Shown here: piece after piece, positions 23,828-47,623 of the stretch
How positions within the stretch are numbered: the first letter of the stretch is position 1
How the letters are laid out: each line of letters begins with the position of its first letter
Sequence record: PZ445468.1
From: a phage
Strand: one strand, 5' to 3'
Length of the DNA stretch: 47,623 nucleotides
Translations under genes and position numbers: made by a program
The notes under the pieces: model-generated
The model's database searches: none
What the model was told of the DNA's origin: nothing
The model's input: the letters and a program-made list of their open reading frames with translations, nothing else

Positions 23828-24156
23828 AATTTATCCTCATTCATTTCCAGAAAGACAATCATGGCAGCGCGGAGTGGGTTTGTATCGAATGTTGTCTCTC
23901 CATCTTGACCATCTGCAAACCATATATCTCGATGGGTGCTTGGGGTTACCGATATAAAATTATTGGTAATAATCGGCCATGCATCAGCCGGGTTGTTGCA
24001 TGGGTCAAACTTTCGCTTAATATTTTTGTCATCAAAAAAGAAGAATCCATCGGGACATATGTGAGCCAACCCACCATTGGGGCAAAGGTTACTACTAACA
24101 AAAAAGAAAACCTTTTGCGCTATTTCCATGTCACTCATGTCTTCATAATTTTTCAT
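23824..24156 (-). CDS. hypothetical protein (110 aa)
   Basis: ORF. Confidence 0.45.
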   Translation of the reverse strand: MKNYEDMSDMEIAQKVFFFVSSNLCPNGGLAHICPDGFFFFDDKNIKRKFDPCNNPADAWPIITNNFISVTPSTHRDIWFADGQDGETTFDTNPLRAAMIVFLEMNEDKL

Positions 24157-36700: not shown

Positions 36701-37135
36701 TCAATCCACATCAAAAGGCAAGCCAAAATAGAAAAGTGTGGCTTTTTTTAGTTCATCAAGTCCATAAGCGATGGCGGCATAATGACCAAGCCTACACATC
36801 TCTGTTAGCACATCCGATTGCTCCTTGCTCACTCTGCTTTTACTTTTATCGCGGCGCTTTGACTCAATCATTCCGCAACTGTGATTTACACCCGGAGTCA
36901 TTATTACGTTGTCGCCTATTCCAGTCTTAACTCCCATCTTCTGGCGCTTCAGCACAAACTGCACTCTGCTTGATGTGCCAGTTTCGTTTGGTACATGAAA
37001 CCACAGAACATCAGGGAATCGGTGTTGCATCCATGTGCCGTAACCCATCTGGTCAGTCTCCTCTTTAGGACACTCACCACGATAACCGCTATCAAATACC
37101 CATATACCGCTATCAAGCTGCTTCACTTTGCTCAC
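36701..37135 (-). CDS. VRR-NUC domain nuclease
   Basis: 144-aa ORF with D ... E-x-K pattern (GIGDNVI ... GMIESKR). Confidence 0.45.
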   Translation of the reverse strand: MSKVKQLDSGIWVFDSGYRGECPKEETDQMGYGTWMQHRFPDVLWFHVPNETGTSSRVQFVLKRQKMGVKTGIGDNVIMTPGVNHSCGMIESKRRDKSKSRVSKEQSDVLTEMCRLGHYAAIAYGLDELKKATLFYFGLPFDVD

Positions 37136-39050
37136 CTGTAAAATCTTTTCTGTGGATTATGTCTCGGCCTTTATCATTAATACGATGCGTGATGCGTTTT
37201 GGCGATTTAATCAATCCAGCATACATCATGAATTGTTTTGCGTTCTGGCATTTCAGTATTTTCCCAGCCATTGACTTATCATCAAGGTGAGGAAAGATAG
37301 CCTTTGCCTTAAACATGTTTTTCATGTGAGTTGCGCCGCTATAAGGGTAGAAAACCTCGCTAGCCCATCCTTCTTTTCCGTCACAACGATTAATCCAGTA
37401 GCGATATAAAACCCCCTCTCCATCCTTCGTTAACTGAACCTTGAAATCCATAACGTCAGCCCATTCATTATCCGTATACGCACGCTCATTCAGTGCCGCA
37501 TTAGGGTCGCGCAGAACATGATCGCAATGTCGGCAATAACGCGCAGTAGGGTCATTTTTAGTCCCGCAACCATCATCAAAAATCCGTATTCCATGCTTGT
37601 CGAAACCGCAACGAATGTAGCTGAAAAATTCTTCGCATCGACCATCTGGCGATAGTACATCTTTGCCAATGCAGCGGCGCGCATATGGGCTGTTCATTGT
37701 TCCGCATTTCGGGCACGGAACCTGTTCACCACTGCGCCTTGAACGCTGAGCCTCAGCTTCTTCCAGAATCGGGTCTTCATACAGCTGACCAAGCTCAAAC
37801 ATCGTGCCTGAGAAATCAAGAACCAGATGGTCTTCTTTATGATACCCAGCATCAATTTGCTCCTTCTTCAGCAGGCGCATACCGCGACCAAGCAACTGGA
37901 CAAGGAGAGTTAGCGACATTATTTTCCTGAGGATTACGCTTACATCCCATAGCGGAATGTTTACTCCGGTCGTCAGCGCGGCTATCTGGAATGTGTATTT
38001 TATTTTGCCAGTGTACGCATCCTTTAGAGCCTTACGTCTGGCTTTTTGCCCCATATCTTCGGTGACAATAGCGTAGCTACCTTCTGGCAGATATTTAGCA
38101 GCTTCTAAACAATGCTTCTTGCCTGCGCAGGTAATTAACACTCCATTTCTATCTTTTGTAAGCTCCATCACTTTGAGCATGATTTTCTGTGTGAGAGTAC
38201 CTTGCTCAAGGATTTCTTCCTGCATCTGCTTAAGTTGTTCGGCAGTGAAGTCCTGCGTTCCGTCGATATCAGATCCACGGAATGCTGAAAGGTCGTAATG
38301 CAAATCATCAACATCATGAAGGCCAAAGATTGTTGGAACAACAAATCCGCGATCTACCATGTACTTTGTGTCAATGTTTATTATTTCATTCTTCCAGTAC
38401 GCACCTTTCATTGATTCAGTGCCACGGAATGGGCTTCCGGTGAATCCAATTGTTATCATTTCATGACCATGTTTTGCCTTGCATCTCCTGTTAAGTTCCG
38501 TAAGTATTACACCATATTGTGTTGTTGGATTCTCACTAATAATGTCCTGCCACGGAACTTGGTGCCCTTCATCGCACAGGCAAAATCTGGGGGCAAAATC
38601 ACTCAATCCACCTTTCTTAACGTCACCACTTGATTCATCTTTTTTATCAAAAAGTGCGTTAACGATTGTTCCTTCAGTTCCGCATATAATAGGGTATGCT
38701 GTACTTTTCCTGCCAAGAGATGCGCTATAAAGAGAATTTTTTACACCGCACTCCCACATCATTTCAGCATTCTGCTCTGCTATTTCCCCCTGCCTTGAAA
38801 TAACAAGGCCATCCCACCCCATATCCTGAAATCTACTGCAAAGCATTGAAATTATCACGGTCTTTCCTGATGAAACCGACGCTGTAACATAGCTTGGTTC
38901 AGGTTTCTTGCCAAAATTACGAATAACCTCAGCGCACTTTGCGTAAACAAGCCATTGGTAATCATATGGCTCTATGGAGCCTAATTTTATTGATTGCTTT
39001 AACTTCTCAATATTAATCTCTGAAATCATTTTGTCTATTTTGTTCATCAC
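37113..39050 (-). CDS. DExH-box superfamily II helicase
   Basis: Walker A SSGKT, DEGH motif II, C-terminal Cys4 zinc-finger pairs. Confidence 0.75.
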   Translation of the reverse strand: MMNKIDKMISEINIEKLKQSIKLGSIEPYDYQWLVYAKCAEVIRNFGKKPEPSYVTASVSSGKTVIISMLCSRFQDMGWDGLVISRQGEIAEQNAEMMWECGVKNSLYSASLGRKSTAYPIICGTEGTIVNALFDKKDESSGDVKKGGLSDFAPRFCLCDEGHQVPWQDIISENPTTQYGVILTELNRRCKAKHGHEMITIGFTGSPFRGTESMKGAYWKNEIINIDTKYMVDRGFVVPTIFGLHDVDDLHYDLSAFRGSDIDGTQDFTAEQLKQMQEEILEQGTLTQKIMLKVMELTKDRNGVLITCAGKKHCLEAAKYLPEGSYAIVTEDMGQKARRKALKDAYTGKIKYTFQIAALTTGVNIPLWDVSVILRKIMSLTLLVQLLGRGMRLLKKEQIDAGYHKEDHLVLDFSGTMFELGQLYEDPILEEAEAQRSRRSGEQVPCPKCGTMNSPYARRCIGKDVLSPDGRCEEFFSYIRCGFDKHGIRIFDDGCGTKNDPTARYCRHCDHVLRDPNAALNERAYTDNEWADVMDFKVQLTKDGEGVLYRYWINRCDGKEGWASEVFYPYSGATHMKNMFKAKAIFPHLDDKSMAGKILKCQNAKQFMMYAGLIKSPKRITHRINDKGRDIIHRKDFTGEQSEAA

Positions 39051-39622
39051 CTACTCCTGCTAAAATCACCGTGTAATGATTTTCTATATTTCTTTATGGC
39101 GTTACCTGCTTCCTCTGCTGTATTAAAGTAACCAAGATTAAATCTCCTGCCGTTAACCGCTATCCTTGCTCTCCACTTTTTACTTTTTGCATCAAAGCCA
39201 ACCCCTTTAAATCCAGATTGGTTATCAATTCTGATTTTCCTATTCATGCAGTTTTCGCTTGGTTTTGCCTCTCTTAAATTTAAGATGGCGTTATTTGATT
39301 TATCTAAGTCGATATGGTCAATCTCAAATTAAGGCCACTTCCCGTTAACATAAAACCATGCAAGTCTGTGGGCCATAAACCTGTATCCACCTATAACTAT
39401 GCGTACATATCCGGTATTCTCAACATATCCAGCTCTCGGTGAGTTACTGTGATTACCATTTCTCCACGTAAAAATTCCTGTTGATTTTTCATAATTAATT
39501 TTTGATTTAAGAAACTCATGGCTTAGCGATGACTCCTTTTGCTTTCTTCTCTCTAAATTTCTTGACTCTGCACCTGACAGAGCAGCACTTCGCCTTTGCA
39601 GTTCCGATGAACTCATTTCCAC
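39047..39622 (-). pseudogene. HNH-AP2 homing endonuclease interrupted by in-frame TAA
   Basis: both halves align to intact paralogue at 47116..; TAA at 39329-39331 sits where paralogue has E/K. Confidence 0.6.
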
Positions 39623-39665
39623 AAACCTCGCACTTCTTTACGGTGATCGCCATTTCATAACCTCT

Positions 39666-39729
39666 ATTGTAACGATTAATTGTTTCATTTCAAGTAACGA
39701 TTGATTGTTTCATGCGAGTAAATTACAAT
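39666..39729. promoter_or_regulatory. divergent promoters with tandem 18-bp repeats
   Basis: leftward TTGAAA-16-TACAAT; rightward TTGATT-17-TACAAT; AACGATT(A/G)ATTGTTTCAT twice. Confidence 0.45.
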
Positions 39730-39760
39730 GATTCTACATCATCGTCAACAGGAAGATTTT

Positions 39761-40714
39761 ATGAGATACGACTGGAAAGACATTGAGCCAAAAATGCTCG
39801 GAAATTGGCAGGCCGCCATCATGTCTATCGTCAATGTGGATAGCAGAGTTTTCAATGGCAAGCACCAGCCATGCCCGTCATGCTCAGGAAAAGACAGATA
39901 TCGCTTTGATGATAACTTCGAAACAAAAGGCGATGGCGGCGCAATATGCAATCAGTGCGGGTCCGGCAGCGGCATGAACTGGCTGATGAAACTTTCAGGC
40001 ATGAACTTCCCTGAAGCACTGGAGGCGCTTGGTGGATTCCTGAACATGCACCCACGCGAAAAGCTGGAGGCAATCAGGAAGGAACTACCGAAGATAAATT
40101 ACAACGATGACTTCATCACCGAGCAGGAAGTAGCCGCAATCATGTCTAAAACGACGCGTGTCGCGATGAGTGAGTGGACTTTGATAAATGGTATTGGTTG
40201 CGACGTTAGCGTCGTCAGAGGGAAATCTGGGGAGCTTATTGCGGTTGAGATGGTGCGCGCTGACACAATGAGTCCGTGCAACGTGGCATTCATTGGCATG
40301 GATGGTGATGCATTCAGAACATTCTACAAAGCAGGATATAACAAAGACTCAGCCATAAACGGCAAACTCACACGAGGCGCGATAAGCCCAATCGGAGAAG
40401 ATAACGGAAAGTTCATTTATCTGGTGTCTGATTATGCCGACGCGTGGAAATGCCATTACTTCACTGGCGCGCATGTCTGGTGCTGCTGGTCGCCGGAAAA
40501 TATGTGGGAAGTGGTGCGCTCGGTTAGCGGTGAGACGAAAGCAAGGTTACGCTGCATAGTTAATTATAAATTTGACGAGCTTTGCGCTGCGGAAAATGCA
40601 GGACTTCCGGTGATGCTGCCTGATGATTCCGACACAATCAGGATGGCGAAGCGAATCAGAAGAAAGATTTATGACGCTGGCGAGTTGATAGAGAAGATCT
40701 CAGTTTGCAGATAA
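39761..40714 (+). CDS. putative DNA primase (zinc-ribbon)
   Basis: N-terminal CPSC ... CNQC zinc-binding motif; AGGAAG RBS. Confidence 0.5.
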   Translation: MRYDWKDIEPKMLGNWQAAIMSIVNVDSRVFNGKHQPCPSCSGKDRYRFDDNFETKGDGGAICNQCGSGSGMNWLMKLSGMNFPEALEALGGFLNMHPREKLEAIRKELPKINYNDDFITEQEVAAIMSKTTRVAMSEWTLINGIGCDVSVVRGKSGELIAVEMVRADTMSPCNVAFIGMDGDAFRTFYKAGYNKDSAINGKLTRGAISPIGEDNGKFIYLVSDYADAWKCHYFTGAHVWCCWSPENMWEVVRSVSGETKARLRCIVNYKFDELCAAENAGLPVMLPDDSDTIRMAKRIRRKIYDAGELIEKISVCR

Positions 40715-47115: not shown

Positions 47116-47623
47116 ATGCTTACGCAAGCAGAATTAAAACACATCCTTGATTACAATCCTGACACCGGAATTTTTACATGGAAAAACCCACACAAGCAGG
47201 GAAGGGCTAAACCCGGGAAGATAGCAGGAACAATAAAATTATGCGGCACCGTTGGTAGCAAGCGGCTGTATCACTACATTCATTTTGGAAGGAAGTGGTA
47301 TAGATCACACAGGCTGGCTTGGCTTTACATGACTGGTAGTTGGCCTGAAAAAGAAATAGACCACATAAACAACAATACGCTTGATAATCGTTTTGTTAAT
47401 CTGCGAGAGGCTGACCATCAACAAAATGGTTACAACAAAAAGCTACAGGCAAACAACATGTCAGGGGTTAAGGGTGTGTACTGGGATAAATCAAGATGCA
47501 AGTGGATGGCGAGATTAAATATAAATGGCAGGGAGGTTAACATTGGCAGGTTTGCCAACATTGAAGATGCAGTCAAAAAGATAATGGAAGAAAGAGAGAA
47601 ACATCACGGGGAGTCTTGTAATC
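47116..47623 (+). CDS. HNH-AP2 homing endonuclease (runs off window end)
   Basis: GIFTW, RLAW, IDHINNNTLDNRFVNLREA HNH motif and AP2-like C-terminus; no stop within window. Confidence 0.7.
   Translation, partial: MLTQAELKHILDYNPDTGIFTWKNPHKQGRAKPGKIAGTIKLCGTVGSKRLYHYIHFGRKWYRSHRLAWLYMTGSWPEKEIDHINNNTLDNRFVNLREADHQQNGYNKKLQANNMSGVKGVYWDKSRCKWMARLNINGREVNIGRFANIEDAVKKIMEEREKHHGESCN

Follow-up and report, generated by a model that had tools for sequence, protein, structure and literature searches.

Probable recent decay of a free-standing HNH-AP2 homing endonuclease gene in the helicase-primase gap of Escherichia phage TanjaMuster_Bas81

I-HmuI of the Bacillus phage SPO1 (PDB 1u3e) belongs to group 2 of the His-Me finger endonucleases (zf-His_Me_endon / HNH_3) (PMC5714182). 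It is encoded in an intron and is a modular protein, in which a nuclease domain is combined with NUMOD/HTH modules. Free-standing endonuclease genes of the HNN-AP2 type have been described in the Xanthomonas phages Xp10, OP1 and Xop411, in T5 (hegG and hegJ), in T1 and in RB16, and a stepwise degeneration after transmission has been documented for phage genes of this type (PMC2248197). Endonucleases with HNH_3 and AP2 domains are also encoded by the Salmonella phages SB28, SeSz-2 and 64795_sal3, in which they are intact.

The gene described here is carried by a phage of the BASEL collection. The window, i.e. the whole stretch of 47,623 nucleotides that was analysed (PZ445468.1), corresponds to the entire genome, a circle of 47,623 bp, of Escherichia phage TanjaMuster_Bas81 (PQ850630.1), a Skatevirus-like siphovirus. 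It is rotated relative to PQ850630.1, such that the window position equals the record position minus 1048, and only four single-base differences are found between both (at 23945, 33168, 33596 and 33948), none of them near the endonuclease gene. All four are non-synonymous: one, I71T, affects Bas81_0066, and the tail fibre gene Bas81_0076 has A403G, K546Q and T663I. This suggests that the window represents a different stock or version of the Bas81 phage, possibly a host-range variant. In PQ850630.1 nothing is annotated between the helicase gene Bas81_0081 and the primase gene Bas81_0083, and the locus tag Bas81_0082 is skipped. The relevant features of the window are as follows.

37113..39047, minus strand: helicase gene Bas81_0081 (PHROG 16, DNA helicase), with its own AGGAG.
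39047..39616, minus strand: free-standing HNH_3 + AP2 homing-endonuclease gene of 189 codons, now a probable pseudogene (from translation, Pfam, PHROG, the intact allele and the annotation gap).
39047..39247, minus strand: downstream ORF of 66 aa (from the ORF list), which contains the AP2 segment.
39068..39217, minus strand: segment coding for the AP2 DNA-binding domain, residues 134-183 (Pfam; Foldseek matches to plant AP2/ERF structures).
39251..39376, minus strand: segment coding for HNH_3 (beta-beta-alpha-metal finger), residues 81-122, split by the stop (Pfam; alignment with I-HmuI 1u3e; Foldseek).
39329..39331, minus strand: premature TAA at codon 96, which is GAA (Glu) in relatives; minus-strand G to T at 39331.
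39332..39616, minus strand: N-terminal fragment of 95 aa, the sole translatable product from the native start, ending in ...NGKWP (from translation).
39516..39653, minus strand: unannotated, conserved Cys4 zinc-ribbon ORF of 45 aa (MAITVKKCEVCGNEF...CCSVRCR...), with its own AGAGG and a distinct codon-position variation.
39666..39693, minus strand: sigma-70-like promoter match upstream of the zinc-ribbon ORF, TTGAAA-16-TACAAT, 10 of 12 positions, a consensus match only.
39669..39713, no strand: two direct repeats of 20 nt (39669-39688 and 39694-39713), 95% identical and 25 nt apart from start to start, overlapping the promoter-like site.
47116..47623 and on to position 8, plus strand: Bas81_0002, an intact HNH_3 + AP2 member of 171 aa, which served as comparator in an earlier note on this DNA.

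That earlier note had placed two minus-strand ORFs, 39329..39622 and 39047..39247, in a single frame with a TAA between them, and this is borne out by the sequence and its translation. The endonuclease frame extends from ATG 39616 to TGA 39047 and is broken by one stop only, the TAA at 39331-39329, where the minus strand reads AAG TGG CCT TAA TTT GAG ATT GAC CAT (K W P stop F E I D H). When the translation is read across the stop, Pfam HNH_3 is matched with E 6.9e-14 and 51.7 bits, and this match spans the stop (residues 50-91 of the 158-aa query, which are residues 81-122 of the frame). AP2 is matched with E 2.9e-8 and 34.3 bits at a cut-off of 33.3. The scores of the interrupted frame for HNH_3 and AP2 are on a par with those of the intact copy at 47116. 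The intact allele of the interrupted gene matches PHROG 99 'HNH endonuclease' with E 1.8e-64. The copy at 47116 had been called a paralogue, and it does belong to the same family, but the term is overstated: as Bas81_0002 and the interrupted frame share only 38% identity over 165 residues (E 1e-37), it is no recent duplicate. Bas81_0002 is flanked by the first annotated gene and by the gene for the large terminase subunit, with which it overlaps by 8 nt, and this terminase-adjacent site is another typical insertion site of endonucleases.

The Bas81 gene has the N-terminal nuclease fold in common with I-HmuI, whose motif HRL...(loop)...DH...NN...NLR aligns with the Bas81-type endonuclease, and both combine the nuclease with a separate DNA-binding domain. 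In contrast to the intron-encoded I-HmuI with its NUMOD/HTH modules, the Bas81 gene stands free between genes and codes for an AP2 domain; the sequence identity is ~21%, and the Bas81 copy carries the premature stop. An AlphaFold (AF2) model of the intact allele was obtained with pLDDT 93. In Foldseek its top PDB match was I-HmuI 1u3e (E 3.7e-4), followed by the plant AP2/ERF domain structures 7wq5, 7et5 and 1gcc with an rmsd of 1-3 A. Residue 96 is found in this model in a loop between helix 82-91 and strand 98-101, which bears the Asp-His pair. The stop is located five codons ahead of the catalytic His101, whose codon CAT is at 39314-39316. The residues D100, H101, N109, N113, N122 and N125 are all encoded in the Bas81 DNA. 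An alignment of 75 homologues has D100, H101, N113 and R115 as invariant positions, all of them 3' of the stop, and P95, N109 and N122 as nearly invariant ones, with a variable position 96. In Bas81 the frame is not continuous, as the TAA at codon 96 precedes every catalytic residue, and the 95-aa product stops just past the 'WP' box, without Asp100-His101, the conserved Asn residues and the AP2 domain. By descent, the gene belongs to the HNH_3 / I-HmuI-like family, but in Bas81 it is a probable pseudogene.

The HNN-AP2 genes share with the Bas81 gene the succession of the boxes HRLAW, WP, D/H, (D)NR, NLRE and EN, followed by AP2. They also resemble it in that several copies occur per genome and in that their presence varies among related phages, and in tblastn RB16 and similar phages were among the matches at ~44% identity. 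There are two differences. The decay in Bas81 is at its first step, with one nonsense codon as the sole lesion and an intact allele known at 99% identity, and the insertion site of the Bas81 type is fixed (helicase/primase) and common to several cassette types. The endonucleases of SB28, SeSz-2 and 64795_sal3 occupy the same slot and likewise start within the zinc-ribbon ORF. Unlike the Bas81 copy they are intact, and at ~43-45% protein identity they represent different cassettes and no orthologues.

The origin of the stop can be traced in closely related alleles. A search of 5.8 billion protein clusters returned an intact protein of 189 aa (P0001, E 5.6e-120) that is 99% identical and has Glu at the stop position. 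Relatives of the cassette were located in ENA and Logan assemblies, and 16 cassette-bearing metagenomic contigs were compared, six that encode P0001 and ten that were found via the exact sequence of the neighboring small ORF. These contigs carry the same cassette as Bas81, with ~99-100% identity over the endonuclease gene. Exact-pattern scans around the stop in viral_contigs and JGI metagenome_contigs gave no match. The full 189-codon frame is kept in 14 of the 16 contigs, and codon 96 is GAA (Glu) in all of them, so that the stop of Bas81 is a private G to T change at 39331 relative to these contigs. One further private change is found within the Bas81 gene, a synonymous C to A at 39232 (CGA to AGA), and a second damaging change was not seen in comparison with the 16 relatives. 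The comparison with related genomes that the earlier note had proposed thus returned a sense codon throughout, and its suggestion of a recently inactivated homing endonuclease is upheld by the GAA of all related alleles, by the lack of other damage and by the undiminished domain scores. With a probability of roughly 90%, we think that the Bas81 gene is a recently pseudogenised free-standing homing endonuclease gene of the HNH (I-HmuI-like) + AP2 type, in which Glu96 was changed from GAA to TAA by a single G to T transversion.

Two wild alleles of the same endonuclease have been disrupted by independent single-base frameshifts. In L044, an A5 run at about window position 39490 is extended to A6, by which an ATG that overlaps the zinc-ribbon stop comes into frame and a 157-aa product results, and in L050 an A5 run at about 39503 is shortened to A4. 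From polymorphism, a pN/pS of 0.46 is obtained for the endonuclease and one of 0.05 for the first 150 codons of the adjacent helicase on the contigs that carry it, which argues that the endonuclease cassette evolves under relaxed constraint. Together with the two wild frameshift alleles and the nonsense allele of Bas81, such a relaxed constraint fits the cycle in which genes of this kind usually invade, become fixed and decay.

It has to be considered whether the T at 39331 could be a sequencing or assembly error, with an intact gene in the real phage. It is a single-base change, and all 16 related alleles have a G at this position, but the Bas81 genome was determined from Illumina reads of 151 bp, typically with a coverage of 50-100x (PMC11990801), and consensus substitution errors are rare under these conditions. 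Position 39331 lies outside of any homopolymer. The deposited GenBank record shows the same TAA (positions 40377-40379, with window 39331 corresponding to record 40379), and the tag 0082 that was skipped exactly there suggests that the depositors or NCBI saw a broken gene. Moreover, Bas81 has private substitutions elsewhere in the same conserved block (39715, 39232, 38853, 38808), which indicate a slightly diverged lineage. An error is therefore very unlikely in our view. Still less credible, and the least probable of all readings, is a readthrough or recoding of the stop, either programmed or due to a suppressor tRNA, that would supply low, regulated amounts of the full-length nuclease. For a nuclease that is potentially toxic, a low level of expression would be suitable, and the frame 3' of the stop is undamaged, but none of the 16 relatives has the stop, and a conserved recoding signal is thereby excluded. 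The only tRNAs of the phage are Arg-TCT and Ser-GCT, neither of which is a suppressor, and an Rfam scan of 38900-39850 gave no element. TAA is the commonest normal stop of this genome, terminating 46 of the 95 annotated genes and doing so as TAAT in 18 of them, and the context of the premature stop is TAA-T. In E. coli, termination is strongest at UAA-U. The readthrough site that the earlier note had listed among its options is not supported by these observations.

The remaining alternative is that the split gene is functional, with the 95-aa fragment and/or an AP2-only protein from ATG 39247 acting as DNA-binding factors without nuclease, for example as repressor or as competitor for the homing site. 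The 66-aa AP2 ORF is undamaged and provided with an ATG, and phages frequently carry truncated remnants that consist of AP2 only (PMC2248197). Yet ATG 39247 lacks a Shine-Dalgarno sequence, and the relatives keep the full-length frame. Neither the N-terminal fragment of 95/97 aa nor the C-terminal ORF was found as exact sequence in a collection of 15 billion proteins, which argues against an allele that is maintained in nature. We regard a functional split as very improbable, a little less so than readthrough and rather more so than a sequencing error, although some role in DNA binding might persist for the 95-aa fragment or for a product with AP2 alone. Recent pseudogenisation by the G to T transversion accounts for the locus as a case of ordinary decay of a homing endonuclease gene, and there is no sign of an unusual decoding mechanism.

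The gap between helicase and primase is variable among the relatives. At least seven cassette types are found in it, with endonucleases of 151/188, 187, 191, 199, 233 and 334 aa in addition to the Bas81 type of 189 aa, and in Salmonella phage KE08 the site is empty, lacking both the zinc-ribbon ORF and the endonuclease. The cassette is far less diverged than its flanks. From ~39800 to ~38800 the Bas81-type cassette is 0-1% diverged, as compared to 6-10% in the primase and the distal helicase, and the low-divergence tract includes the 5' end of the helicase gene over a length that differs between contigs, from about 200 nt up to more than 800 nt. Such a tract is the pattern that would be expected from recent homing with co-converted flanks, and the presence or absence and the replacement of cassettes mark the gap as a hotspot for homing endonucleases. 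Two other cassettes of this slot have peculiar structures. The Vi II-E1-type cassette (L022/L002; VIP0046 of Salmonella phage Vi II-E1, 334 aa) looks composite: an N-terminal HNH_3-like part, in which Glu-His replaces Asp-His and which is without AP2, is joined to a Cys-rich HNH protein of 233 aa that stands alone in Bas80. In L032, whose cassette is again of a different type, the AP2 region reads otherwise than in the closely related L033 and the protein is cut short at 151 aa, which is most simply explained by a frameshift.

The start of the endonuclease gene is overlapped by the zinc-ribbon ORF. The endonuclease frame opens inside of it in the +1 frame, and the 101-nt overlap, which had escaped the earlier note, covers the first ~34 endonuclease codons. 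Its variable sites are distributed over the three codon positions as 1/5/17 in the zinc-ribbon frame versus 5/13/1 in the HNH frame, i.e. 17 of the 23 variable sites among 14 distinct relatives are located at third positions of the zinc-ribbon codons. In L053, five amino acids are changed in the endonuclease frame and none in the zinc-ribbon ORF. This third-position variation and the pattern of L053 indicate that the zinc-ribbon ORF is a real, unannotated gene, which is under purifying selection. The exact protein is encoded on dozens of contigs in the public collection, and the ORF is conserved across the Skatevirus-like phages that were examined, with a size of 41-51 aa and a C-terminal tail that varies with the endonuclease cassette that follows. 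It weakly matches the PHROG HNH family phrog_1271 (E 5e-4). A profile search with the zinc ribbon returned only three proteins of 45-50 aa, and no in-frame zinc-ribbon fusion in the Bas81 lineage; in-frame zinc-ribbon-HNH proteins do exist elsewhere, for example in L040.

Between ATG 39616 and Met81 the endonuclease frame has no further ATG, GTG or TTG, and the residues that precede the A-run match the N-terminus of the family, so that translation must start inside the small gene, at ATG 39616 or at GTG 39622, which is two codons further 5'. A GAGG is found 9 nt 5' of ATG 39616, and we infer that this ATG is the start codon. The upstream ORF 39329..39622 of the earlier note does exist, but its likely start is ATG 39616 and not GTG 39622. 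A start inside the zinc-ribbon ORF in the +1 frame is shared by nearly every cassette type in the slot (loci L013-L037); mostly it is ATG, in L030/L031 it is GTG, and the sal3-type has an ATG three codons later. In L033 the start codon reads ATA, and the start may have been lost.

A second, N-terminal frameshift lesion in Bas81 was considered, as there is no ATG just 5' of the conserved region. ATG 39519, which overlaps the zinc-ribbon stop (ATGA), is in another frame, and in L044 the additional A in the run at ~39490 puts it in frame. This candidate was ruled out. The Bas81 frame 5' of the A-run (EFLKSKINYEKSTG) fits the consensus L..L.Y[DN]..TG and the 64795_sal3 protein, the reading of L044 (KLIMKKSTG) fits neither of them, and the state of Bas81 is common to 14 of the 16 alleles. 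The 109-aa gene calls in the protein cluster are best read as starts that a gene caller set at Met81, a choice imposed by the overlapping small gene, rather than as truncated genes.

It could be speculated that the zinc-ribbon ORF and the endonuclease form a two-part mobile unit, in which ribosomes on the overlapping small gene throttle the translation of the endonuclease, but we consider this rather doubtful. More speculatively, a +1 frameshift might yield a zinc-ribbon-HNH fusion. A prfB-like slippery site was sought by eye in the overlap and none is conserved, the AGG of Bas81 being GGA AAG/AAA in relatives. Apart from the overlapping zinc-ribbon gene, which is mildly unusual, the locus is ordinary.

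Upstream of the zinc-ribbon ORF, the sigma-70-like match at 39666..39693, the best promoter-like one, probably drives this ORF together with the endonuclease and helicase genes. The direct repeats at 39669..39713 (GTAACGATT[A/G]ATTGTTTCAT) are situated in the divergent intergenic region of primase and zinc-ribbon ORF, where an operator or iteron function is possible. At the other end, the ATG of the helicase and the TGA of the endonuclease overlap by one base (TGATG, 39045-39049). The premature TAA halts upstream translation ~280 nt 5' of the helicase start, but the helicase gene is preceded by a separate AGGAG and is probably little affected in its expression.

For the intact protein, the family and the divergence pattern suggest the following course of events. 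In a co-infecting relative with an allele that lacks the endonuclease, the nuclease would make a cut close to the start of the helicase gene, and repair would then copy the cassette, together with some flanking helicase sequence, into the cut genome. In a phage lineage that already carries the cassette, the nuclease would give no benefit, and disabling mutations would therefore be tolerated. Bas81 would represent the first step of such a decay: translation from ATG 39616 now stops after 95 residues, and judged by sequence and model the truncated product is without the catalytic Asp-His strand, the metal-binding Asn and the AP2 domain, so that no nuclease would be made.

Beyond annotation, the finding matters little. 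The HNH-AP2 pseudogene plus the small zinc-ribbon gene would be the fitting annotation for the helicase-primase gap of Bas81, and they explain the 680-bp unannotated gap and the missing tag in its record. As an example of decay the case is clean, with an intact allele at 99% identity, two more independent frameshift alleles and a clear low-divergence tract. For the measurement of homing in BASEL phages, a convenient trio would consist of Bas81, a revertant to GAA and relatives free of the endonuclease, and the start of the endonuclease within a conserved small gene may be of interest for work on how phages restrain selfish nucleases.
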